From the NCBI GenBank assembly GCA_036785375.1, contig JAWMAR010000023.1, positions 12,648,001-12,712,000 of the forward strand: 64,000 bases of DNA, in the 5' to 3' direction. Shown piece by piece: positions 3,741 through 61,679 of the stretch. Position numbers and translations under genes: made by a program. Under the pieces are notes generated by a model, which was not told the origin of the DNA, ran no database searches, and saw nothing but the letters and a program-made list of their open reading frames with translations. Numbering within the stretch: the stretch's first letter is position 1; every line of letters begins with the position of its first letter. Source of the DNA: Leucoraja ocellata (taxonomy: Eukaryota).

Positions 3741-3825
3741 CAAATGTCCCATAACAGCTTAGTTACTCCAGCGCTTTGTCTATCTTCAATATAAAACAGC
3801 ATCTGCAGTTCCTTTGTACACGCAT

Positions 3826-4170
3826 GTCACCTATCCACGTTCTCCACAGATGCTGCCTGACCCACTCAGTTATGGTGCAGCAGCATCTATGGAGCTAAGG
3901 AAATAGGTAATGTTTCGGGCCGAAATCCTTCTGGAAATAGGCAATGTTTTGGGCCGAAACCCTTATGGGTTTCGGCCCGAAACGTTGCCTATTTCCTTAG
4001 CTCCATAGATGCTGCCTGACCCGCTGAGTTACTCCAGCACTCTGTGAAACGTCACCTATCCATGTTCTCCACAGATGCTGCCTGACCCGCTGAGTTACTC
4101 CAGCACTCTGTGAAACGTCACCTATCCATGTTCTCCACAGATGCTGCCTGACCCGCTGAGTTACTCCAGC
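3826..4170 (+). repeat. 66-bp Penelope-derived tandem array with embedded fold-back cassette (~3880-4014)
   Basis: Unit gaaacgtcacctatccatgttctccacagatgctgcctgacccgctgagttactccagcactctgt; inverted arms around 'ccc-ttat-ggg'. Confidence 0.9.
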
Positions 4171-4814
4171 TTTTAGAGTCTGTCCCAGATCTGATCGCTG
4201 CGACACCATCAGTCATAGACTTCCAATCAGAACAGCATCTTTCCACCGATACCCTGCCTTCCATTGCAAAGCCCATGTCAGACGCAGTTCACCCTTGGAC
4301 CTCTAACTCCTTCACCTTCTTGGCCAGCCCTTCCACTAGCTCTGTGGATGACACAAGTTGGTGCTGCTATGGCTGGCTGACTGTGGGGACTTGAGTTACA
4401 TTGACTGACCATGACGGACTGCCAGGCATAAATATATTCCAGCTTCAGGCAGCAGATTGGGAGAGGCACGGAATTTGCGTTTGCACACGCGAGGAATTGC
4501 AACATGAGAATTGAAGTGAGATCAAGTTTCAGGCAACAAACCGGGTGTTAAGAATAACAGATGATTTAACGGCACCATTCACTGTTCTCCAGGGCAGCTA
4601 TTTATACCATCATGAAATAAAAGTTGCGTCACCCTTCTGAAACGTTGCCTTTCCTCGATTACACGGCATCTAAACTGAGCTGGGCTTCATCAAGTGGCTC
4701 CAGACATCTCAGTCATCGACCACAAGCGAGAGATGGCCAATCATGACAAGGCTGTCACCTGGAGCAGGGCCCGCTGAGGTGACCCGCTACATGGGATGTG
4801 AGGAAAATGGTAGC

Positions 4815-8460: not shown

Positions 8461-8570
8461 AGATCTAGAAACTTCCCAGAAAAAATACATGAGGACATCA
8501 CAAAAGCCGGACATCAGTGGAAGGAATGAGCGGGACTGTGAAACGGTCTTTACCAAAATGACACAGTGGT

Positions 8571-8935
8571 AGACACAGAGTGCTGGAGTAACTCAGTGGG
8601 TCAGGCAGCATCTGTGGAGAACATGGATAGGTGACGTTTCACAGAGTGCTGGAGTAACTCAGCGGGTCAGGCAGCATCTGTGGGGAACATGGATAGGTGA
8701 TGTTTCACAGAATGCTGGAGTAACTCAGCGGGTCAGGCAGCATCTGTGGAGAACATGGATAGGTGACGTTTCACAGAGTGCTGGAGTAACTCAGCGGGTC
8801 AGGCAGCATCTGTGGGGAGAAGGAATGGGTGACGTTTCGGGTGGAGACCCTTCTTCAGACTGATGTCGGGGGAGTGGGCGGGACAGATAGAATGTAGTCG
8901 GAGACAGTAAGACCGGTGGGAGAACTGGGTTGGGG
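8571..8935 (-). repeat. Penelope terminal segment with hammerhead motif followed by a 66-bp array (~4 units)
   Basis: Reverse complement of the 66-bp unit repeated; hammerhead core at 8831-8858. Confidence 0.9.
8831..8858 (-). ncRNA. Minimal type I hammerhead ribozyme motif (intact core)
   Basis: Reverse complement reads CTGAAGA A GGGT-CTCC-ACCC GAAACGTC: CUGANGA and GAAA boxes, 4-bp stem II, GUC triplet. Confidence 0.65.
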
Positions 8936-9575
8936 ATGAGATGATATACGGTGGCGTTGAAGGCTCTGCGTGTAAATACGCAGAGACCATTCATCTACAT
9001 TCTCACGCTGTTCACTGTGAGAATCACATCGGGCCTCCCTCTCCTACATTTGCTCGCTGCTATAAACCTTCAGTGTCGGAACAATAGGCGCGAGGAGGTG
9101 GTCTTGAGGCCATGACCTGAGTAACCACAGTAAGGACAAGCTCCTGCTGTAGCTGTGGCCCACACATCCTCCCTCCCCCCAGAGCCTAGCTGCTTCTCAC
9201 ACCCCTCACTGTAGTCACGGCAACAGGGCAGTGTGGCCACAGACACACCAAGTCGTAAACTTCATTTCCTGCTTTCACACCAGACAACCTTTAGTCAAAA
9301 CCCGGCAGCATTTCAAACACACGTCAGATTCTTGTCCGATACTAATGTCACTAAATGCTGCAAACCGTTTATTACAGTCGTTCTCTGTTTAACGAGTGGC
9401 CGATCACACATGTGTGATTTATGACAGGCTGTTATCTTCAGCTAATGTCCTCCTAAACTTGGGAAAGGCCAGTGAATGGACATCTGTTACAATCCCGACT
9501 TTCCCAACCAGCAGTCCATCAATCTCCCTGCCATCTGCATTGTGTCCCATTAAGTGGCAGCTTACGTTTAACGTT

Positions 9576-9940
9576 GGATAGGTGACGTTTCACAGAGTGC
9601 TGGAGTAACTCAGCGGGTCAGGCAGCATCTATGGAGAACATGGATAGGTGACGTTTCACAGAGTGCTGGAGTAACTCAGTGGGTCAGGCAGCATCTGTGG
9701 AGAACATGGATAGGTGATGTTTCACAGAGTGCTGGAGTAACTCAGCGGGTCAGGCAGCATCTATGGAGCTAAGGAAATAGGCAACGTTTCGGGCCGAAAC
9801 CCGTAAGGGTTTCGGCCCGAAACGTTGCCTATTTCCATAAGGATTTCGGCCCCGAAACGTTGCCTATTTCCTTCGCTCCATAGATGCTGCTGCACCATAA
9901 CTCAGCGGGTCAGGCAGCATCTGTGGAGAACATCGATAGG
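9576..9940 (-). repeat. 66-bp array with fold-back cassette (~9754-9893)
   Basis: About 3 units plus inverted arms around 'ccc-gtaa-ggg', with a duplicated ~34-bp arm segment. Confidence 0.9.
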
Positions 9941-10044
9941 TTCCCACGTTATGCCTGGTGCTGCTACTGTTGTCTATCGCCCGCAATGAATGACTCGTGG
10001 CTTTGCCAGAACTCTGCTGAGTTATAATCCAGAATACCAGCGGG

Positions 10045-12088: not shown

Positions 12089-12829
12089 GTGAAACCAACA
12101 TTACCTGGAAAGATTTTGCAAACAAATAAAATTATAATAAACTCAGAGTTTTTCTTCCCCTGCCCCCGAGAAGATGCGAGCACCGCCTGTAGTTGTTGGG
12201 CGTAGAACATTGGTAATTCACAACTCAGTCTAATTATTGCTGGGCATTTGTACACACAGCTGGAGTGTGAGTGGGTCCAATGTCATTCTACTGTCTGTAA
12301 CCAGGTAACCAACATTGCTGGGGAAACAGGCAGGGACTGGCCCTTTATTCCAGGCAGGTTTATTGGGTTGAATAAGTGCGTGTCTCTCACTGTCCTGCTT
12401 TGACACAGTCAGATCATTCCTTATCGGTTTATCCGCATGTAGTGGTGTCCGCACCAATGCCCAGCTCCCCCCTCTATGTGCAAAGACCCCTCCATTTCCT
12501 TTCCCAAAACAAGCCCTCTTTCAATAAACCTGGCCCTGGTGTTTAAGATGCATAAAGTGTCACATTGGCTTTGCCCTGGTCAACAATAGTACTATTTGTG
12601 GAATGCACCTCGAAATATTTTCAGGACAATAGCTTGTTCATTACTTATGTTTCCTCACAGAAATCTTTCACTTAGAGAAGTCGGCATTCTTTAAAGCAGC
12701 AAGGGTAAGATGGCAAACGCTCGGATGGGACTCCTGCAAACTAGTGAATTAGTTTATCTTCCTGTCCCCTCCCCTAGTGCAGTGATAGAATGGGGAACAC
12801 AAGGAACTGCTGATGCTGGAGCCTTCTGT

Positions 12830-13265
12830 CTGAAGAAGAGTCCCGACCTGAAACGTCACTTGTACCTTCTGTCCACAGATGCTGCCTGACCCGCTGAGTT
12901 ACTCCAGCACTCTGTGAAACGTCACCTATCCATGTTCTCCACAGATGCTGCCTGACCCGCTGAGTTATGGTGCAGCAGCATCTATGGAGCGAAGGAAATA
13001 GGCAACGTTTCAGGCCGAACCTTCTGGAAATAGGCAACGTTTCGGGCCGAAACCCAGAAGGGTTTCGGCCTGAAATGTTGCCTATTTCCTTAGCTCCATA
13101 GATGCTGCTGCACCCGCTGAGTTACTCCAGCACTCTGTGAAACGTCACCTATCCATGTTCTCCACAGATGCTGCCTGTCCCGCTGAGTTACTCCAGCACT
13201 CTGTGAAACGTCACCTATCCATGTTCTCCACAGATGCTGCCTGACCCGCTGAGTTACTCCAGCAC
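12830..13265 (+). repeat. Hammerhead-like motif + 66-bp array + fold-back cassette (~12970-13113)
   Basis: 'ctgaagaagagtcccgacctgaaacgtc', then units and inverted arms around 'ccc-agaa-ggg'. Confidence 0.9.
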
Positions 13266-14159
13266 TTGGTATTTTGCTCTGGGATAGAGTGGGATTAGTG
13301 AATGATACTGACCAGGGATGAACCAGGCCAATCCACAAAGAACCTGAAGAATATCAATAATTATAGGCCCCCCTGTCCCAGAAACAGCAGAGAGAAGAAT
13401 CTAAAGAATCAGGAGGCTTAGAAAATGTGAAAGATAGAGGTGTGGTCTTGGCCTAGAATTACGAGAATACTTTGCCTGGTAGTATTGTGATTCATTTCAC
13501 TCTAACAATATACCCTTCTGTTCCTTTGTCCCTTGAGATCTTATCATGCTTGGTCCAAGGTGCATCGTAAATGCTGCATACGTCAACAATCCCATGTTGT
13601 GATGGGCTCCTTATTCTAACCACTACATTGTTATATATTATTTATATTTTACAAAATGCAACCAAGGTGCAGGTGTGGACCCCAGGTGAGTGGTGTGGCC
13701 TCGGGAGGGCAGTAACCCTCTGCTGCAAGGTTATTATAACCTTCATAATGAGCTTTGTGGAGACCTATTCCTTCACTTTTGTGAAACCACCGTCCTTGTT
13801 GATGAGATCTAATGGGAGAAAGTCCCAGAGCAGGAACGCAGCAGAATCTGGGCCTAGTCTCGCAGGATCACACAACAAAACCCATTCCAATGCCCAACCC
13901 ATTTCCCAGAAGGAAACACAACACTAACAACAGGGGAAAGAAAAGCAATATTGTCGATTCAGCTGGAGTTCTGTGAGCAGGGGATGTATACAGTGGATCT
14001 ACTAGCCAGCGCCCCAATCATTCTCATCCAAGACTCCAGTCGAGGTGAAAGTTCTCCAGCTGTTAAACACATTGTTCTTCAGCTTATGCAGGACTGCACA
14101 TTGTAACCCTCATTGTATTCTGCTCAAGAACATGCAATATAGAGCAGTACTGTTGTCTG

Positions 14160-14864: not shown

Positions 14865-15150
14865 TCAGAATTAAACAACGTTCTTTTAGGAAGGAGATGA
14901 GGAGACATTTCTTTCGTCAGAGGGTGGTGAATCTGTGGAATTCTCTGCCACAGACGGCTGTGGAGGCCAGGTCAGTGGATATTTTGAATGCAGCGATAGA
15001 TAGATTCTTGATTAGTACGGGTGTCAGGGGTTATGGAGAGAAGGCAGGAGAATGGGGTTAGGAGGGAGAGATGGATCAGCCATGAGTGAATGGTGTAGTG
15101 TAAATGATGGGCTGAATGGCCGAATTCTACTCCTATTCCTTATGACCTTG
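14865..15150 (+). mobile_element. CR1-like LINE 3' end
   Basis: FRKEMRRHFFRQRVVNLWNSLPQTAVEA translation. Confidence 0.85.
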
Positions 15151-16182: not shown

Positions 16183-16877
16183 TCACACGCGCACACACAC
16201 GGGCACATGGACACACACGCGCACACACGGACACAGGCACACACATACACACGCGCACACACACGGACACACACACGCACACACGGGCACACGCGCACAC
16301 ACGCGCACACACACGGGCACACACGCACACACGCGCACACACGCACACGGGCACACGCGCACACATACACACACGGACACATACACACACGCGCACACAT
16401 ATACACACACACGGACACACACACGCACACGGGCACACGCGCACACACACGAGCACACGCGCACACATACACACACGGGCACACGCGCACACACACGTAC
16501 ACACACACGCACACACATACACACGGACACACANNNNNNNNNNNNNNNNNNNNNNNNNNNNNNNNNNNNNNNNNNNNNNNNNNNNNNNNNNNNNNNNNNN
16601 NNNNNNNNNNNNNNNNNNNNNNNNNNNNNNNNNNNNNNNNNNNNNNNNNNNNNNNNNNNNNNNNNNNNNNNNNNNNNNNTACACACAGACGTACACACGC
16701 GCACACGCACACGCACGCAAGCACACACGCACACACGCGCACACACTCACACAGACACGCACACACGTACACACGCACACACACACGCCCCCCACACACA
16801 CACACGTATACACACACGTACACACGTACGTACACACGTACACAAGCACACACGTACTCACACTCACACTCACACAC
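16183..16877. repeat. CA/CG-rich microsatellite spanning an assembly gap (N 16534-16679)
   Basis: Direct inspection. Confidence 0.95.
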
Positions 16878-24154: not shown

Positions 24155-24495
24155 TTCATAAGGTCATGTGACAGCAGAATTAGGCCATTCGGCCCATCGA
24201 GCCTACTCCGCCATTCAATCATGGCTGATCTATCTCTCCCTCCTAACCCGATTCTCCTGCCTTCTCCCCATAATCCCTGACACCCATACTGATCAAGAAT
24301 CTATCTATCTCTGCCTTTAAAATATCCACTGACTTGGCCTCTACAACCGTCTGTGGCAAAGAATTCCACAGATTCACCACCCTCTGACTAAAGATATTTC
24401 TCCTCATCTCCTTCCTAAAAGAATGTCCTTTAATTCTGAGGCTGTGACCTCTAATCCTAGACTCTCCCACTAGTGGAAACATCCTCTCCACATCC
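24155..24495 (-). mobile_element. CR1-like LINE 3' end
   Basis: DVERMFPLVGESRIRGHSLRIKGHSFRKEMRRNIFSQRVVNLWNSLPQ. Confidence 0.9.
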
Positions 24496-24604
24496 AAGAC
24501 AAGCACTCATCATACGTTAAGAGAGTTCCTGCCCCTGGCAATTAAAGAATATTACCTCACCTCGTAATTAGCAACTTGTGCTGTAAAATACAATGATTGA
24601 ATGT

Positions 24605-24775
24605 CTTAAGAAAGAACTGCAGATGCTGGAAAAATCGAAGGTAGACAAAAATGCTGGAGAAACTCAGCGGGTGAGGCAGCATCTATGGAGCGAAGGAAAT
24701 AGGTGACGTTTCGGGTCGAGACCCTTTTTCAGACTGAAGGGTCTCGACCCGAAACGTCACCTATTCCTTCCTCCA
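24605..24775. mobile_element. Head-to-head pair of Penelope terminal fragments joined at the hammerhead motif
   Basis: 'aggtgacgtttcgggtcgagaccc...gggtctcgacccgaaacgtcacct' inverted repeat. Confidence 0.85.
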
Positions 24776-24949
24776 TGTCACCTCCTACCATTAGGATTTT
24801 ACAGACAGCAAAGACAACTGAATCAATGCCTGGATAAATATGTCCTATCAGCTCTGGCCCTTTTCTCACCCTCAATGCCAACTTGTCTTGCCTTGGTCAG
24901 AGAACTATGGGGGGGGGGGGGGGGACAGAGAGAGAGGGGTTTACTGCTT

Positions 24950-25387: not shown

Positions 25388-25544
25388 AGAATTTCAACCA
25401 GTAACCGCTACCTGTTACACATCCAGTGGAAATCCAGTGCTCAATGCCAGCATTTCCCAATGTCTGAGCCGTCTGTGACAACATGAAGCATATTGAGAAT
25501 AGTTTCAATATTTGCTATTGAACTACTCAATCAAACCTAGTGTT

Positions 25545-26040
25545 TAAGAAAGAACTGCAGATGCTGGAAATATTGAAGGTAGACAAAAATGCTGGAGAAA
25601 CTCAGTGGGTGGGGCAGCATCTATGGAGTGAAGGAATAGGTGACGTTTCGGGTCGAGACCCTTCTTCAGACTGATGTGGGGTGGGGGGGACGAGAAGAAG
25701 AAAAGAAGAGGCAGTGGGCTGTGGGAGAGCTGGGGAGGGGAAAGAGGGAGAAAGCAGGGACTACCTGAAATTGGAGAAGTCAATGTTCATACCGCTGGGG
25801 TGTAAACTACCCAAGCGAAATATGAGGTGCTGCTCCTCCAATTTGCTCTGGGACTCACTCTGGCCATGGAGGAGGCCCAGGACAGAATGGTTGGATTTGG
25901 AATGGGAAGGGGAGTTGAAGTGCTGAGCCACCAGGAGATCAGGTTGGTTATTGTGAACCGAGCGGAGGTGTTGGGCGAAGCGATCGCCAAGCCTACGCTT
26001 GGTCTCACCGATGTAGAGCAGCTGACACCTAGAGCAGCGG
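25545..26040 (-). mobile_element. Penelope-like element 3' part: GIY-YIG endonuclease end, purine/pyrimidine tract, hammerhead, tail
   Basis: IRCSRCQLLYIGETKRRLGDRFAQHLRSV...VAQHFNSPSH...EEQHLIFRLGSLHPSGMN is a PLE GIY-YIG domain. Confidence 0.92.
25642..25669 (-). ncRNA. Minimal type I hammerhead ribozyme motif in the Penelope terminal repeat
   Basis: Reverse complement CTGAAGA A GGGT-CTCG-ACCC GAAACGTC, about 90 nt downstream of the GIY-YIG stop. Confidence 0.7.
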
Positions 26041-26744
26041 ATTCCTCGATCACCTTTGATTTTTCCATCTCTCACATTGAGTCCTATTCATCTGTGGTAT
26101 GGGTGCTAATACATGTCTTTTAGGCTATTTGAGATTTTAGAAAATATTCTGATAAACCTAATAACTATTAGATTTGAGATGTGTGAGTCAGGGAGTTGTT
26201 GTCATGAAGCATGGTTTATCTTCAGCTAGTGTTAAAGATGTATTAATGTTATGGCTTTAGTTCACTAACCAGATAGTTGACGTATTTATACATCAGACTG
26301 AAGAGCTGTAACTAACTTTAGAATGTGTTACCTGTATCTGTATATCTCTGATTGAGGACTGATCCCTGGGTGATCTGTTAAACCACTGTCTTCCTCACAG
26401 GAGCTGCTTCTTGGTGCATCATTCCAATCTATCTGGTGTATGCAACTCCCCTGCAATGGACCGCCAATGACCCGCTGCTAAAGCTGCAGTGTGTCAGAAA
26501 GGAAAGGCAACTCTGTGTATGTGTCAATTACCTGAACACATCATTCAGATCAGCAGTTAATCTCAATAGCAATTTAAAAGACCATTAAATGGTCAACCAT
26601 CAGAAACAATTAAATTAAGATTCCAATGTTATTATATATCACAGCAGGTACTGTGGGCAGCTCATAGCAGAGCTGGATAATTCATGTACATCTTTGTACC
26701 TTGCTGTACCTTAGGTAACACACGTACACAAGTACCTTGAGCAA

Positions 26745-28702: not shown

Positions 28703-28730
28703 GACGTTTCGGGTCGAGACCCTTCTTCAG
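28703..28730 (-). ncRNA. Minimal hammerhead motif (intact core) in a head-to-head Penelope terminal pair (28643-28805)
   Basis: Reverse complement CTGAAGA A GGGT-CTCG-ACCC GAAACGTC. Confidence 0.65.
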
Positions 28731-31934: not shown

Positions 31935-32258
31935 AGATCATGTGATAGGAGTAGAATGAGGCCATTCAGCCCATCAAGTCTACTCCGCCACTCAATCATG
32001 GCTGATCTATCTCTTCCTCCTAACCCCATTCCCCTGACATCTGTACTAATCAAGAATCTATCTATCTCTGCCTTAACAATACTCATTGACTTGGCCTCCG
32101 CAGCCTTCTGTGGCAAAGAATTCTGACGAAAGAAATTTCTCTTCATTTCCTTCCTAAAAGAACGTCCTTTTATTCTGAGGCTGTGACCTCTAGTCCTAGA
32201 CTCTCCCACTAGTGGAAACATCCTCTCCACATCCACTCTATCCAAGCCTTTCACTATT
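31935..32258 (-). mobile_element. CR1-like LINE 3' end
   Basis: KGLDRVDVERMFPLVGESRTRGHSLRIKGRSFRKEMKRNFF. Confidence 0.9.
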
Positions 32259-35367: not shown

Positions 35368-35775
35368 AGACACAGAGTGCTGGAGTAACTCAGCAGGTCA
35401 GGCAGCATCCGTGGAGAACATGGATAGGTGACGTTTCACAGAGTGCTGGAGTAACTCAGCGGGTGCAGCAGCATCTGTGGAGAACATGGATAGGTGACGT
35501 TTCACAGAGTGCTGGAGTAACTCAGCGGGTGCAGCAGCATCTATGGAGGGAAGGAAATAGGTAACGTTTCGGGCCGAAACCCTTCCGGGTTTCGGCCCGA
35601 AACGTTGCCTATTTCCAGAAGAGTTTCGGCCCGATACGATGCTGGTTCAATATGATGATGGACACAAAGTGCTGGAGTAACTCAGCGGGTCAGGCAGCAT
35701 CTGTGGAGAACATGGATAGGTGACGTTTCACAGAGTGCTGGAGTAACTCAGCAGGTCAGGCAGCATCTGTGGAGG
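35368..35775 (-). repeat. 66-bp array with truncated fold-back cassette (~35530-35635)
   Basis: Units on both sides; inverted arms around 'ccc-ttcc-ggg'. Confidence 0.88.
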
Positions 35776-36084: not shown

Positions 36085-36213
36085 TAAGGAGGAACTGCAG
36101 ATGCCGGTTTAAACCGAAGATAGACACAACATGCTGGAGTAACTCAGTGGGACGGGCAGCATCTCTGGAGAGAAGGAACGCGTGTCGTTTTGGGTCAAGA
36201 CCCTTCTTCAGAC
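36085..36213 (-). mobile_element. Solo Penelope terminal fragment, degenerate hammerhead
   Basis: 'aggaactgcagatgc...ggagtaactcag...gacccttcttcagac'. Confidence 0.75.
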
Positions 36214-36351: not shown

Positions 36352-36716
36352 NNNNNNNNNNNNNNNNNNNNNNNNNNNNNNNNNNNNNNNNNNNNNNNNN
36401 NNNNNNNNNNNNNNNNNNNNNNNNNNNNNNNNNNNNNNNNNNNNNNNNNNNNNNNNNNNNNNNNNNNNNNNNNNNNNNNNNACACANNNNNNNNNNNNNN
36501 NNNNNNNNNNNNNNNNNNNNNNNNNNNNNNNNNNNNNNNNNNNNNNNNNNNNNNNNNNNNNNNNNNNNNNNNNNNNNNNNNNNNNNNNNNNNNNNNNNNN
36601 NNNNNNNNNNNNNNNNNNNNNNNNNNNNNNNNNNNNNNNNNNNNNNNNNNNNNNNNNNNNNNNNNNNNNNNNNNNNNNNNNNNNNNNNNNNNNNNNNNNN
36701 NNNNNNNNNNNNNNNN
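36352..36716. other. Assembly gap
   Basis: Run of N (5 called bases inside). Confidence 1.
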
Positions 36717-38748: not shown

Positions 38749-38941
38749 NNNNNNNNNNNNNNNNNNNNNNNNNNNNNNNNNNNNNNNNNNNNNNNNNNNN
38801 NNNNNNNNNNNNNNNNNNNNNNNNNNNNNNNNNNNNNNNNNNNNNNNNNNNNNNNNNNNNNNNNNNNNNNNNNNNNNNNNNNNNNNNNNNNNNNNNNNNN
38901 NNNNNNNNNNNNNNNNNNNNNNNNNNNNNNNNNNNNNNNNN
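38749..38941. other. Assembly gap
   Basis: Run of N. Confidence 1.
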
Positions 38942-44573: not shown

Positions 44574-45093
44574 CTGGTTCACCTGTATCTCCTCCAACCT
44601 CATCTACTGCAACCGCTGCTCTAGATGTCAGCTGATTTACATCGGGGAGACTAAGCGGAGGTTGGGCGATCGTTTCGCCAAACACCTCCGCTCAGTCCGC
44701 AATAACCAACCTGACCTCCCGGTGGCTCAGCACTTCAACTCCCCCTCCCATTCCCAATCCGACCTCTGTCCTGGGTCTCCTCCATTGCCAGAGTGAGCAA
44801 CACCGGAAATTGGAGGAACAGCATCTCATATTCCGCCTGGGTTGCTTGCGTCCGGATGGCATGAACGTTGAATTCTCCCAGTTTTGCTAGCCCTTGCTGT
44901 CTCCTCCCTTCCTTAACCCTCGAGCTGTCTCCTCCCATCCCCCCGCCCTCGGGCTCCTCCTCCTCCCTTTTTCCTTCCTCCCCCCCCCCACCCCCCATCA
45001 GTCTGAAGAAGGGTTTCGGCCCTAAACGTTGCCTATTTCCTTCGCTCCATAGATGCTGCTGCACCCGCTGAGTTTCTCCAGCATTTTTGTGTA
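44574..45093 (+). mobile_element. Penelope-like element 3' part (GIY-YIG, C-rich tract, hammerhead variant at 45003-45030, tail)
   Basis: FTCISSNLIYCNRCSRCQLIYIGETKRRLGDRFAKHLRSV...VAQHFNSPSH, then 'ctgaagaagggtttcggccctaaacgttgcc' (G12>U in this copy). Confidence 0.92.
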
Positions 45094-45450
45094 TTGCCGA
45101 CTGAAGGCCTGTTTCTGTGCTGTGTTATAGATTTTGTTTGTTTTTGTTTTACAGATACAGGGCGGAAACTGGCCCTTCGGCCCGCCAAGTGCAGGCTGTA
45201 CCCGTAGTCGGGATCGAACCCGCGTCTCTGGCAGCAACTCTACCACTGCGCCACCATGCCACCCTTCAATAGTCTATGTTCTGGCTGCTTGTATAATCAG
45301 AACCATATTATTATCAATGCCGGTGTGGAGTCCTTCCCCCCCCCCCGGGCAATCGTATGATGGTTTCACAGGCAGCGGTAAATTCCAGATGATCCTGATG
45401 ATAACTCTCAGCTATCTCACGGTTAGTGTGACTGACTTACATTGTTCCAG

Positions 45451-47502: not shown

Positions 47503-47530
47503 CTGAAGAAGGGTCTCGACCCGAAACGTC
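47503..47530 (+). ncRNA. Minimal hammerhead motif (intact core) at the 5' edge of a solo Penelope terminal fragment (47503-47592)
   Basis: CTGAAGA A GGGT-CTCG-ACCC GAAACGTC. Confidence 0.65.
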
Positions 47531-48222: not shown

Positions 48223-49416
48223 CATGATTACCATGGCCTTGCAAGCAATATTTCAGTAACAACCTTTGAGTAACAATCTTTGAGTGTAGAACATAAATAA
48301 AACACATAAATGCACAGGGGTTGTTTTTCCATCTTGAAACTGTTGCCCTTTCATCCCACGCTGTGTCTCTAATCTCCTGAACCGTGCCCTTCTGGTTTAC
48401 ACAGCTACAGAAATGGAGACTGGTTTTCAGTGGAAGTGTGTTACCATATTCGCAGTTCCTTCCCTTCAGATGTGGCAAACACTAGGTATCATGTGACTCA
48501 AATCTTTCCATTACTGAATAAATTCTTGTTGTTACAGATTTGGGGAAAATTGTATCTCGTGATCATTCTGATATTTTATTTTCATTTGGTCTGCGGGATC
48601 ATGTGTCTACAGAAATCATTCTATTGGTGTTGAAACTCTCAATCACAGACAAAAGCCTCTTGTTTCTGTCTTCACATAAATAATAGAAGCAAGAGAGACA
48701 TCGTGTGATTTACGTTTCTGGTGATAGTGATCCTCACCTCGACACAACTTACTGCCAAGCCTCAACATCTGCTGTCGAAGAGTCAATAGATCCTGAATGT
48801 TCTCAACGGCCAGGTATGCACAGACTTAGCAGGTGGACAATGCCAAATATTATTATGAATAAAAGAGGTTTTCTTCATGAAGGTCCACTTGTACTGAGAG
48901 ATGCCTCTAGTCCAAGAGGAGACTGACTCCAGCATCTACTCCACCAGTCTCTAGCTGAATCCCAGCTGTCACAGTGAGGTCACCACTCATTCTTTACCAA
49001 CCAGAAGCCAGTATGACTACATCACTCTTCGAATGACAAGCTCAGGAATGAACCATCAACATATCTGCACGTTATTGAGGAAGTTCCTCAATCTTTCCTC
49101 AAGTATCAAGAGCACATTGGTCAGTTTGTTCTTTGTTGCCATTAGAAGAGCACTTGTGGATAACCTGACTGCTGTTGGTCAAAATCAGTAAAAAGCAAGA
49201 ATTTGATCCTTGAGTTTCACAGAAAAGCTTCTCTCCGCGAGGCAGTCTAAGCTTAAACTGACACAGGCAATCCTGTTGATAAAAGTCAAAGTTAACCTGT
49301 AACAGTCACCTCTTAAAGGCACGAAGATGACGTACAGTGCCTTTGTTTGGAAACCAACATCTGCAGTTCCTTGTGTAGGGAACAACTGCAGATGTTGCTT
49401 TAAATAGACAACCAGT

Positions 49417-50060
49417 CTGAAGAAGGGTCTCGACATGAAACGTCACCTATCCATGTTCTCCACAGATGCTGCCTGACCCGCTGAGTTACTCCAGCACTCT
49501 GTGAAACGTCACCTATCCATGTTCTCCACAGATGCTGCCTGACCCGCTGAGTTACTCCAGCACTCTGTGAAACGTTACCTATCCATGTTCTCCACAGATG
49601 CTGCCTGACCCACTCAGTTATGGTGCAGCAGCATCTATGGAGCTAAGGAAATAGGCAACGTTTCGGGCCAAAATCCTTCTGGAAATAGGCAACGTTTTGG
49701 GCCGAAACCCTTAAGGGTTTCGGCCCGAAATGTTGCCTATTTCCTTAGCTCCATAGATGCTGCCTGACCCGCTGAGTTACTCCAGCACTCTGTGAAACGT
49801 CACCTATCCATGTTCTCCACAGATGCTGCCTGACCAGCTGAGTTACTCCAGCACTCTGTGAAACGTCACCTATCCATGTTCTCCACAGATGCTGCCTGAC
49901 CCGCTGAGTTACTCCAGCACTCTGTGAAACGTCACCTATCCATGTTCTCCACAGATGCTGCCTGACCCGCTGAGTTACTCCAGCACTCTGTGAAATGTCA
50001 CCTATCCATGTTCTCCACAGATGCTGCCTGACCCGCTGAGTTACTCCGGCACCCTGTGTC
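49417..50060 (+). repeat. Longest composite: hammerhead motif + ~3 units + fold-back cassette (~49628-49762) + ~4.5 units of the 66-bp repeat
   Basis: Begins 'ctgaagaagggtctcgacatgaaacgtc' and runs directly into the array. Confidence 0.93.
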
Positions 50061-50492: not shown

Positions 50493-50877
50493 AAACATGT
50501 TGGTCAGCATGTGCAACAGCTACAGATACAGAAGAGATACAGCTCTTCGCCCCACAGAATCCACTCCAACCAGTGATCACCCCAACATTAATACTATCCT
50601 ACACACTAGGACCAATGTACAGAGGCCAATCCACCCACAAACCTGCACGTCTTTGGAGNNNNNNNNNNNNNNNNNNNNNNNNNNNNNNNNNNNNNNNNNN
50701 NNNNNNNNNNNNNNNNNNNNNNNNNNNNNNNNNNNNNNNNNNNNNNNNNNNNNNNNNNNNNNNNNNNNNNNNNNNNNNNNNNNNNNNNNNNNNNNNNNNN
50801 NNNNNNNNNNNNNNNNNNNNNNNNNNNNNNNNNNNNNNNNNNNNNNNNNNNNNNNNNNNNNNNNNNNNNNNNNNNNN

Positions 50878-51992
50878 GTGTCTCTGTGACTGTGTCTCTG
50901 TGTCTCTGTGTCTCTGTGTCTCTGTGACTGTGTATCTGTNNNNNNNNNNNNNNNNNNNNNNNNNNNNNNNNNNNNNNNNNNNNNNNNNNNNNNNNNNNNN
51001 NNNNNNNNNNNNNNNNNNNNNNNNNNNNNNNNNNNNNNNNNNNNNNNNNNNNNNNNNNNNNNNNNNNNNNNNNNNNNNNNNNNNNGTTACTGTGTCTCTG
51101 TGTCTCTGTGTCTCTGTGACTGTGTGTCTCTGTGTCTCTGTGTCTCTGTGTCTCTGTGTCTCTGTGACTGTGTGTCCCTGTGTCTCTGTGTATCTCTGTG
51201 TCTCTGTGTCTCTGTGTCTCTGTGTCTCTGTGTCTCTGTGACTGTGTCTCTGTGTCTCTGTGTCTCTGTGTCTCTGTGTCTCTGTGACTGTGTCTCTGTG
51301 TCTCTGTGACTGTGTCTCTGTGTCTCTGTGTCTCTGTGTCTCTGTGACTGTGTATCTGTNNNNNNNNNNNNNNNNNNNNNNNNNNNNNNNNNNNNNNNNN
51401 NNNNNNNNNNNNNNNNNNNNNNNNNNNNNNNNNNNNNNNNNNNNNNNNNNNNNNNNNNNNNNNNNNNNNNNNNNNNNNNNNNNNNNNNNNNNNNNNNNNN
51501 NNNNNNNNNNNNNNNNNNNNNNNNNNNNNNNNNNNNNNNNNNNNNNNNNNNNNNNNNNNNNNNNNNNNNNNNNNNNNNNNNNNNNNNNNNNNNNNNNNNN
51601 NNNNNNNNNNNNNNNNNNNNNNNNNNNNNNNNNNNNNNNNNNNNNNNNNNNNNNNNNNNNNNNNNNNNNNNNNNNNNNNNNNNNNNNNNNNNNNNNNNNN
51701 NNNNNNNNNNNNNNNNNNNNNNNNNNNNNNNNNNNNNNNNNNNNNNNNNNNNNNNNNNNNNNNNNNNNNGTGACTGTGTCTCTGTGTCTCTGTGTCTCTG
51801 TGTCTCTGTGTCTCTGTGTCTCTGTGACTCTGTGTCTCTGTGTCTCTGTGTCTCTGTGACTGTGTCTCTGTGACTGTGTCTCTGTGTCTCTGTGACTCTG
51901 TGACTGTGTCTCCGTGACTGTGTCTCTGTGACTCTGTGTCTCTGTGACTCTGTGTCTCTGTGTCTCTGTGTCTCTGTGTCTCTGTGTCTCTG
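50878..51992. repeat. (ctctgtgt)n 8-bp satellite interrupted by assembly gaps
   Basis: Direct inspection; N runs at 50659-50877, 50940-51085 and 51360-51769. Confidence 0.95.
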
Positions 51993-55247: not shown

Positions 55248-55750
55248 TAAGGAACTGAAGATGTTGGAATCGAGAGTTAAACATGCAGTGCTGGAGTAAC
55301 TCAGCGAGTCAGACAGCATCAGTGAAGGGAATGGATGGGCGATGTTTTGAATCAAGACCCTTCTTCAGACTGGAGAAGGATCCCGGCCTGAAACGTCACC
55401 TATCCATGTTCTCCACAGATGCTGCCTGACCCGCTGAGTTACTCCAGCACTCTGTGAAACGTCACCTATCCATGTTCTCCACAGATGCTGCCTGACCCAC
55501 TCAGTTTATGGTGCAGCAGCATCTATGGAGCTAAGGAAATAGGCAACGTTCGGGCCAAAATCCTTCTGGAAATAGTCAACGTTTTGGGCCGAAACCCTTA
55601 CGGGTTTCGGCCCGAAACGTTGCCTTATTTCCTTAGCTCCATAGATGCTGCCTGACCCGCTGGGTTACTCCAGCACTCTGTGAAACGTCACCTATCCATG
55701 TTCTCCACAGATACTGCCTGACCCGCTGAGTTACTCCAGCACTCTGTGTC
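55248..55750 (+). repeat. Head-to-head Penelope termini + 66-bp array + fold-back cassette (~55517-55651)
   Basis: Inverted arms around 'ccc-ttac-ggg'; same junctions as the 3.9 kb and 49.6 kb copies. Confidence 0.9.
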
Positions 55751-55898
55751 TTATCCTTTCACAGTTACTATTCCTGATAGAATGATAGAAGTTGTCATTT
55801 TCTCTGCAGTTGCCCAAAGGCCCAGAGATTCAACATTGGGAACTTCTATTTTGCACCTCAACTTCTGCACTGAATTATTCTGCTTTGAAAAGTCTGAG

Positions 55899-60565: not shown

Positions 60566-60975
60566 TGAATGGAGTCGAGGGGGGAGGTAAAGCGACAAGT
60601 GTAGCAACTCTTGTGGTTGCAAGGGAAAGAGATGCAACACTTGTCCCTTCACCTCCCCCCTCGACTCCGTTCAAGGACCCAAGCAGTTGTTCCAGGTGAG
60701 GCAGAGGTTCACCTGCACCTCCTCCAACCTCATCTATTGCATCCGCTGCTCTAGATGTCAGCTGATCTACATCGGTGAGACCAAGCGTAGGCTTGGCGAT
60801 CGTTTCGCCGAACACCTCCGCTCGGTCCGCATTAGCCAACCTGATCTCCCGGTGGCTCAGCACTTCAACTCCCCCTCCCATTCCGTCTCCGACCTCTCTG
60901 TCCTGGGTCTCCTCCATGGCCAGAGTGAGCAGCACCGGAAATTGGAGGAACAGCACCTCATATTCCGTCTGGGCA
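60566..60975 (+). mobile_element. Penelope-like GIY-YIG fragment with a 5' inverted segment (60566-60629)
   Basis: CNTCPFTSPLDSVQGPKQLFQVRQRFTCTSSNLIYCIRCSRCQLIYIGETKRRLGDRFAEHLRSV...EEQHLIFRLG, uninterrupted. Confidence 0.92.
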
Positions 60976-60976
60976 C

Positions 60977-60993
60977 GGCGCCATCTAGTTGGC
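60977..60993 (-). promoter_or_regulatory. CTCF-like motif
   Basis: Reverse complement GCCAACTAGATGGCGCC. Confidence 0.4.
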
Positions 60994-61192
60994 AATCTCC
61001 GCAGTACAAATAGAAATTAAGGAAACGGTCTTTGAAAAGGCACGAAAATCTGCCATTCTCCAATTCACTGTCACTACAAAATCAAGACAGGAACCTTCTG
61101 AAAATAATAGACCAACTATGCACTTAAAACTAGTCTTTAAAATAACCTATCATAATCCTCAATAAATATTAAAGATGCTTTCTTGTTTTAGT

Positions 61193-61679
61193 GTGCTGGA
61201 GTAACTCAGCGGGTGGGTCAGGCAGCATCTGTGGAGAACATGGATAGGTGACGTTTCACATAGTGCTGGAGTAACTCAGCAGGTGCAGCAGCATCTATGG
61301 AGCTAAGGAAATAGGCAACGTTTCGGGCCGAAACCCGGAAGGGTTTCGGCCCGAAACGTTGCCTATTTCCAGAAGGGTTTCGGCCCGAAACGTTGCCTAT
61401 TTCCTTAGCTCCATAGATGCTGCTGCACCATAACTCAGCGGGTGGGTCAGGCAGCATCTGTGGAGAACATGGATAGGTGACGTTTCACAGAGTGCTGGAG
61501 TAACTCAGTGGGTCAGGCAGCATCTGTGGAGAACATGGATAGGTGACGTTTCACAGAGTGCTGGAGTAACTCAGTGGGTCAGGCAGCATCTGTGGAGAAC
61601 ATGGATAGGTGACGTTTCACAGAGTGCTGGAGTAACTCAGTGGGTCAGGCAGCATCTGTGGAGAACATGGATAGGTGAC
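61193..61679 (-). repeat. 66-bp array with near-perfect fold-back cassette (61283-61428)
   Basis: Arms 'gtgcagcagcatctatggagctaaggaaataggcaacgtttcgggccgaaaccc' and its reverse complement; loop 'ggaa'. Confidence 0.93.

Follow-up and report, generated by a model that had tools for sequence, protein, structure and literature searches.

Minimal hammerhead ribozymes with a palindromic stem III are known from the pseudo-LTRs of Penelope-like elements (PLEs), as the earlier note on this DNA had stated. In Cervera & de la Pena 2014 (PMC4209133), an extra nucleotide, a G10.1-C11.1 pair and a palindromic 15.2/16.2 form the consensus of these hammerheads; the monomer was inactive, and dimers cleaved weakly. 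The RNAmotif descriptor of that study (Fig. S7) requires a stem I of 3–7 bp, and a 2-bp helix I occurs in 6 of its 56 alignment rows as counted by eye. Frangieh et al. 2024 (PMC11167929) report that an anole PLE hammerhead (Poseidon PAc) cleaved only with the PLE protein, and that it was dispensable for insertion in vitro. Non-LTR retrozymes, which are non-coding, tandem and derived from PLE pseudo-LTRs, have been reported in one chondrichthyan genome (PMC7229834; Li, Clavereau & Pollet 2026, 10.64898/2026.07.22.740005). Here, we describe a hammerhead-like motif at 25642–25669 of a 64,000-nucleotide stretch of the Leucoraja ocellata genome, referred to as the window.

Anatomy and Detection of the Core Motif

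The 28-mer quoted in the earlier note is present at 25642–25669 and reads on the minus strand (25669→25642), which that note had left unstated. It comprises the following parts:

25670..25671, minus strand: 5' strand of stem I (G2.2, U2.1), by descriptor
25663..25669, minus strand: catalytic box 1, CUGAAGA (C3–A9), by sequence and descriptor
25662, minus strand: extra A between A9 and G10.1, present as A in all 17 window copies
25650..25661, minus strand: stem II, GGGU/ACCC, 4 bp, with a CUCG loop, by descriptor
25646..25649, minus strand: catalytic box 2, GAAA (G12–A15.1), by sequence and descriptor
25643..25646, minus strand: loop-less palindrome ACGU (15.1, 15.2, 16.2, 16.1), giving stem III only with a second ACGU, by descriptor
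25641..25642, minus strand: predicted cleavage site after C17 (25642) of the GUC triplet, by hammerhead numbering
25640..25641, minus strand: 3' strand of stem I (A1.1, C1.2), with the adjoining position mismatched, by descriptor

In the descriptor alignment, the extra A, the loop-less ACGU and the weak stem I all proved as proposed; stem I consists of the pairs U2.1-A1.1 and G2.2-C1.2, followed by a mismatch. The motif shares with PLE-associated minimal type-I hammerheads the CUGANGA and GAAA boxes, U16.1 and H17. It likewise has the extra nucleotide at 9/10.1 (an A), the G10.1-C11.1 pair, a stem II of at least three pairs (4 bp), a palindromic 15.2/16.2 with absent or tiny helix III (ACGU without a loop) and a helix I of at least 2 bp (2 bp), as in the published alignment rows. 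It differs from the published minimal hammerheads in that its stem I is shorter than the 3-bp minimum of their descriptor (PMC4209133), which none of the four intact window cores satisfies (2, 2, 2, and 0 bp). The extra A has its claimed precedent in the CChMVd (+) hammerhead (PMC3705267), a viroid ribozyme that resembles the present motif in this one nucleotide and otherwise has complete helices and contacts between its loops; among PLE hammerheads, however, an extra nucleotide belongs to the consensus and is no oddity (PMC4209133).

Regarding individual published rows, the Culex row likewise combines a helix I of 2 bp with the extra A and a CG lacking a loop, and the Acropora Neptune row has the same 4-bp stem II, 4-nt loop and CGUC. 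Compared with the latter, the pairs 10.4/11.4 (U-A to C-G) and 2.2/1.2 (G-C to C-G) are both altered two-sidedly, a covariation that rests on one distant lineage. Cartilaginous fish are absent from the 56 rows (PMC4209133).

The motif-descriptor check proposed earlier was run with a strict form of the descriptor, which required the core, a stem II of 4 bp, palindromic 15.2/16.2 and UH. Four matches were obtained in the window, whereas 300 null windows generated by a first-order Markov model each gave none. The bare pattern CTGANGA..GAAA was hardly above chance (14 matches vs. 6.6 expected, with 2 of 100 shuffles reaching 14). The Rfam search, also proposed earlier, gave no support: no hammerhead family, canonical type-I models included, was among the 35 matches at E ≤ 5. 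The miRNA matches with the best E-values were fold-back repeats, and all scored below the gathering score. A sigma-70 promoter scan was empty, and its model is irrelevant to this host. Judged by its sequence, the motif at 25642 is a genuine minimal type-I hammerhead of a PLE pseudo-LTR, an already described kind that will not surprise a specialist.

The Host Element

Remnants of a GIY-YIG endonuclease occur at three places in the window:

25764..26042, minus strand: 5'-truncated PLE ORF, a C-terminal GIY-YIG remnant starting inside the domain; stop codon at 25763–25761
25670..25760, minus strand: 3' UTR, pyrimidine-rich and subfamily-variable, ending in CATCAGT
25540..25639, minus strand: remainder of the pseudo-LTR
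44613..45095, plus strand: second GIY-YIG remnant (44613–44884), 3' UTR and core at 45003
60741..60977, plus strand: third GIY-YIG remnant, with 3' end and hammerhead absent

The hammerhead sits in the pseudo-LTR behind the PLE ORF. As the earlier note had stated, the core lies downstream of a GIY-YIG ORF; the distance from the stop codon is 91 nt, and the ORF retains no more than the final ~93 codons of a gene truncated at its 5' end. The insertion spans about 26042 to 25540, and its start inside the GIY-YIG domain identifies it as a dead 5'-truncated copy. The Pfam match of the 25764..26042 remnant fell below the cut-off (E = 0.009), and the CCHH-type motifs of C-terminal GIY-YIG (CSRC, YIGET, HL, HF) are present before the stop. 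By these motifs, the ORF ends in a GIY-YIG domain as in C-terminal EN+ PLEs. Among the 148 of 185 window frames scanned, GIY-YIG at 60591–61010 was the sole Pfam domain; these frames contained no reverse transcriptase (RT) or linker, and they established neither a host gene nor a direction of transcription.

Since the window lacks RT and linker in the scanned frames, the PLE clade was taken from homologues only. We retained 18 homologues among 76 candidates, and the four with species names derive from Leucoraja (two), Mobula, and Rhinoraja (68–78% identical); taken by themselves, these names suggest a skate or ray as host. In several homologues, RT sequence and a Cys linker precede the endonuclease, the linker standing upstream in two of the best (named Leucoraja and Mobula proteins). 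As CX2-5CxxC, it is found in homologues P0002, P0003, and P0012 and in the metagenomic loci L001 and L002, and is missing from the truncated window copies. Having a Cys linker ahead of the endonuclease is characteristic of the Neptune and Nematis clades (PMC8557442), so the C-terminal GIY-YIG with this linker points to an endonuclease-bearing PLE of Neptune or Nematis type as the parent element.

Past the cut site, a minus-strand ATG opens a 27-codon frame to the pseudo-LTR end (25540–25620), which by analogy with the anole element may be the ORF start of the next tandem copy. The window also contains seven N runs (1474 bases in total; 16534–16679, 36352–36716, 38749–38941, 50659–51769), mostly in or beside simple repeats.

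Relatives were also searched in metagenomes and viral contigs. The metagenome search yielded six loci from 209 candidates, three of them PLE-like (L001, L002, and L003). L001, with an endonuclease 52% identical, has a degenerate Acropora-type core ~85 nt past its stop; its 5' box was misaligned by MAFFT, so no pair counts were taken from that alignment. L002 is without the hammerhead region, and L003 ends too early. The scan also drew in a prokaryote-like non-PLE protein with a GIY-YIG-like stretch (L004:1501-1743). In viral contigs, the protein-anchored search found no relative, and one DNA-pattern search gave 0 matches. A second pattern search gave 38 matches, two with a 4-bp stem II and, among those listed, none with a stem I of at least 2 bp; they were taken as chance. 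The literature searched, which covered few subscription papers, held no description of this PLE family in skates or rays, or of the half-site arrays described below, and Lunse et al. 2017 may include such short variants.

Copies in the Window and Their Decay

The pseudo-LTR family accounts for 5927 bases in 27 blocks, i.e., 9.3% of the window. The strict descriptor matched three copies whose stem I has 2 bp (8858-, 25669-, and 28730-) and one with 0 bp (47503+). The cores previously called intact at 8831, 28703, and 47503 are so; the copy at 47503, however, is without stem I, as it begins at C3. Comparing copies across the window, we recovered all nine degenerate copies listed earlier and additional ones at 50495-, 53156-, 55368-, 59098-, and 24731+. 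The copies are as follows:

28703..28730, minus strand: intact core, 2-bp stem I, solo stub (descriptor)
47503..47530, plus strand: intact core without the stem I 5' strand, solo stub (descriptor, insertion heads)
10139, minus strand: degenerate core, C3U
12830, 25094 and 49417: degenerate cores, stem II with 3 of 4 pairs
24732, minus strand: degenerate core, G8A
36184–36211 (36211-), minus strand: degenerate core, G12A and U16.1A
45003: degenerate core, G12U, UUCG/GUU subfamily
54930: degenerate core, G12A and A14C
55370: degenerate core, A6G
24606..24776, both strands: head-to-head pair of pseudo-LTR stubs, joined at the TCAG-T-CTGA palindrome (sequence)
55249..55751, both strands: two cores in head-to-head orientation (55368-, 55370+), then a composite element of 66-nt array and fold-back

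Most hammerhead copies in the window are decaying relics. Published minimal hammerheads resemble them in being mainly truncated solo copies, some as opposite-strand pairs, and share the type-I arrangement of CUGANGA with an extra nucleotide, GAAA and a loop-less palindrome after a GIY-YIG ORF (PMC4209133). Across 17 window copies, non-CpG core cells were off the majority letter in 11 of 170 cases, against 46 of 323 for non-core cells (Fisher p = 0.011), for copies that are not independent, share subfamily changes and were chosen by their likeness to the 28-mer. This lower deviation lends modest support to a hammerhead reading of the sequence. The CpG over C11.1/G12 is altered in 9 of the 17, a loss expected from post-insertion decay, and some of the C11.1U cases may be inherited. 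In a second subfamily (UUCG loop, GUU triplet; 45003 and 50495), A11.4 and A1.1 are changed to G, and both pairs are kept as U-G wobbles; it is abundant in another organism's RNA (~2400–2600 reads per run). Among the 40 of 232 variant rows listed in the RNA and contig read comparison, none fell within 25639–25676. Another repeat family contains CTGACGAAAGAAA, hammerhead-like without stem II (14908–14920 on the minus strand, 32123–32135 on the plus strand, and 24300–24500), and was treated as unrelated.

Half-Site Arrays and Composite Derivatives

In one subfamily, tandem units of 66 nt present GAAACGUC-ACC in cis. All 34 array junctions lie exactly at G12, and GAAACGUH is kept in 31 of the 34 units; the cores heading the arrays are damaged in five of six cases. 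Two examples illustrate the arrangement:

8568..8936, minus strand: PLE-type 3' UTR; intact core at 8858–8831, its stem I of 2 bp; behind it three 66-nt units whose half-sites lie at 8772, 8640 and, in mutated form, 8706
49413..50058, plus strand: composite non-coding derivative with degenerate core, 66-nt units, inverted pseudo-LTR segment with 34-nt repeat, fold-back centre (49700–49725) and further 66-nt units

The composite elements are assembled from 66-nt arrays, a segment in inverted orientation that contains a 34-nt repeat, and a fold-back centre at which CUGA is cut off; they are probably a non-autonomous PLE derivative. Seven composite non-coding copies consist wholly of pseudo-LTR pieces (3758–4174, 9575–9941, 12822–13267, 35368–35774, 49413–50058, 55370–55751, and 61190–61679), with fold-back centres at 3952–3977, 9792–9817, 13045–13070, 35572–35597, 49700–49725, 55587–55612, and 61326–61351. 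On the plus strand, the 4-nt fold-back spacer is different in all seven, the arms being near-identical; this variation hints at flipping or repair of the hairpin loop.

Animal non-LTR retrozymes resemble the 66-nt units in being non-coding, tandem and PLE-pseudo-LTR-derived (PMC7229834; 10.64898/2026.07.22.740005). In contrast to retrozymes, where consecutive tandem units each contain a complete hammerhead, the 66-nt units hold only the GAAACGUC half, without CUGANGA or stem II. Neither such half-site arrays nor a boundary hot spot at the 5' edge, as found below, is described in the excerpts of PMC4209133.

Partners for Stem III and Predicted Folds

The loop-less stem III requires a second ACGU, as had been proposed. 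The further claim that it can form only between two copies does not hold, because a half-site suffices, and the 66-nt tandem units supply 34 of them, some directly behind a full core. Fold energies were predicted with models that ignore tertiary contacts and Mg2+. In the monomer ensemble, the hammerhead is not formed (pair probabilities of 0.02–0.03 for stem II and 0.00 for stem I), and the folding z-score is −0.29; in the predicted ground state (off-fold), 25627–25641 pairs with the core and the 5' strand of stem II. The two-strand hammerhead fold reaches −6.1 kcal/mol, compared with −11.2 kcal/mol for two free monomers and −21.5 kcal/mol for a competing dimer via the TCAG-T-CTGA palindrome. 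The hammerhead would thus be far from the lowest-energy state even as a dimer, and these predictions agree with the published need for help (PMC4209133, PMC11167929). Of the proposal that cleavage needs a dimer or tandem transcript, the necessity probably stands; sufficiency does not, given the dimer energies and the protein needed in the anole. We also considered whether the hairpin of the 66-nt unit pre-organises stem III, and rejected this for lack of energetic gain (+4.7 with or without the hairpin).

Insertion Boundaries, RNA Reads and the 5' Edge

Insertion starts were compared for 30 hand-picked heads, including two weak matches and two reference copies. None starts at the cut site, 10 start 0–5 nt ahead of C3, two of these belonging to head-to-head pairs, and four (3826+, 56232+, 58998-, and 61679-) start 2–3 nt before the predicted cut site, at the centre of the ACGT palindrome or adjoining it. 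Three RNA runs of a related organism (37902, 37154, and 52647 reads, drawn from roughly 5%, 5%, and 1% of the respective runs) showed no position within 25540–26050 at which 20% of the depth starts or stops. This test is weak: the RNA comes from another species, the libraries are of fragmented oligo-dT or single-cell type, and passive copies are numerous. Cleavage ends at GUC, which the earlier note had suggested mapping, were seen neither in insertion boundaries nor in these reads. Within the same interval, RNA depth is highest across the predicted cut site and collapses over 25684–25737. Contigs of a further organism showed, among the rows listed, heterogeneous loose ends (agreement 0.31–0.32) behind 25671, 25672, and 25673 in 1230, 1262, and 821 contigs, respectively, and a partly conserved loose-end class at 25674. 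Boundaries, loose ends and RNA reads together lead to the conclusion that new copies are made from uncleaved RNA still holding the whole core.

The 5' edge coincides with one further feature:

25666..25674, minus strand: odd palindrome TCAG-T-CTGA over the 5' strand of stem I and C3–A6; 5' insertion-boundary hot spot

This palindrome centres both head-to-head pairs (24733 and 55369), and its sequence could prime snap-back synthesis. The site fits an initiator-like TCAGTC and a splice-acceptor-like pyrimidine tract plus CAG, which resembles the end of the D. virilis Penelope intron, as well as the odd palindrome, each noticed after the fact. By the consensus sequences, TCAGTC/TCAKTY is initiator-like, and bases downstream of it are DPE-like. 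An exact initiator-like TCAKTY stands 4–9 nt before C3 in 9 of the 56 published rows (PMC4209133, Fig. S3), counted by eye and without a control. A possible intron that would begin at the stop codon and end at the CAG preceding the core found no support, no such joint being among the 15 of 448 joints listed.

Discussion

We consider it likely that the motif is a minimal type-I hammerhead of an EN+ PLE pseudo-LTR, one that in the parent element would be a weak ribozyme requiring both a partner and protein, and that it is a relic at this locus. In the RNA of an active parent, stem II would fold locally, stem III would arise when ACGU pairs with a second ACGU, supplied by a half-site, a separate RNA or the following tandem copy, and stem I with its 2 bp would close across the same partner. 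The instability of this fold and its competition with the off-fold suggest that the element's protein or another chaperone would be needed, and that cleavage would be weak or late. The RNA reverse-transcribed into new insertions would be the uncleaved form, and the copy at 25642 would be a passenger in a dead 5'-truncated insertion, without a tandem partner of its own. The spacing from the GIY-YIG stop to the core counts for this explanation (91 nt here, similar at 45003, and ~85 nt in L001). Counting against it are that no cleavage was seen for this family, the 2-bp stem I, the empty Rfam result, the lack of accumulated read ends in the three RNA runs, the dependence of the two-sided covariation on one distant lineage, and the changed CpG over C11.1/G12 in 9 of 17 copies. 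The anole PAc offers a parallel, as a vertebrate PLE pseudo-LTR hammerhead with no RNA-seq ends at the cut site and with uncleaved RNA as the insertion template; it differs in its Poseidon clade and in an ORF that starts in stem II, and protein-assisted cleavage is demonstrated there and inferred here (PMC11167929).

A rather unlikely alternative is that the hammerhead-derived motif no longer cleaves and is retained as the 5' edge of a transcript or of short mobile stubs, serving as an initiator-like site with DPE-like bases, a splice acceptor, or a binding or fold-back site of the element-encoded protein. The 10 of 30 insertions that start 0–5 nt 5' of C3 and the listed loose contig ends behind 25671–25673 would be accounted for, and a transcript with only 3 nt before C3 would explain the 2-bp stem I. 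With A25672 as +1, G12 falls at +24 and CGTCA at +28 to +32, and the Penelope of D. virilis has an internal Inr/DPE promoter. That match is post hoc, however, with a DPE of 4/5 and out of register with the D. virilis RGACGTGY motif, and the D. virilis promoter lies well upstream of its hammerhead. The D. virilis Penelope intron does end at helix I (PMC4209133), but the 15 of 448 joints listed include none spliced at 25670, and UTR differences between subfamilies also break alignments near 25674. The covariation of stem pairs against the Acropora row speaks for an RNA structure instead.

It is clearly less probable that a full core of the array subfamily cleaves in cis via the half-site of the next unit (GAAACGUC-ACC). 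Such pairing would give a standard type-I topology, with stem III of 4 bp closing a loop of 62 nt, and no second ribozyme would be needed. The junctions at G12, the retention of GAAACGUH in 31 units and the copy at 8858-, which combines PLE 3' UTR, intact core and three units behind it, are as such a ribozyme would have them, and the concentration cost of a two-molecule dimer would be avoided. The predicted cis fold, however, lies 9.7–14 kcal/mol above the ensemble and gains nothing from the unit's own hairpin; moreover, five of the six array-heading cores are damaged, and a single duplication in a master copy, with later slippage or template jumping, accounts for the arrays equally well. It is very improbable that this locus houses an efficient monomeric hammerhead for the processing of host transcripts: the core at 25642 is intact, but its stem III cannot close without a loop, the monomer ensemble scarcely contains stems I and II (z-score −0.29), and another organism's RNA reads cross the site at the stretch's highest depth. 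Least credible of all is a chance resemblance of the repeat to the hammerhead consensus. All copies stem from one repeat family and represent one event, and the loose pattern barely exceeds chance; position and architecture nevertheless match published PLE hammerheads and L001, with positional homology to the published Neptune hammerhead and no strict match in 300 null windows.

Returning to the preferred reading of a partner- and protein-dependent PLE hammerhead, the family adds a very dense example of cartilaginous-fish type, with 27 blocks over 9.3% of the window, to a group of ribozymes whose role is still open (PMC8557442). Insertion boundaries at the 5' edge of the hammerhead, away from the cut site, argue against cleavage defining the insertion template. 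A natural core-plus-half-site RNA (8870–8752, minus strand) provides a handle on the replacement of dimerisation in cis. There is also a slim chance that the RNA starts three nt before the core, hence the 2-bp stem I and the stub starts, and that one subfamily duplicated the substrate half only (66-nt units from G12), yielding a cis hammerhead of one core and many half-sites; if true, it could clip a capped leader or release 66-nt RNAs.
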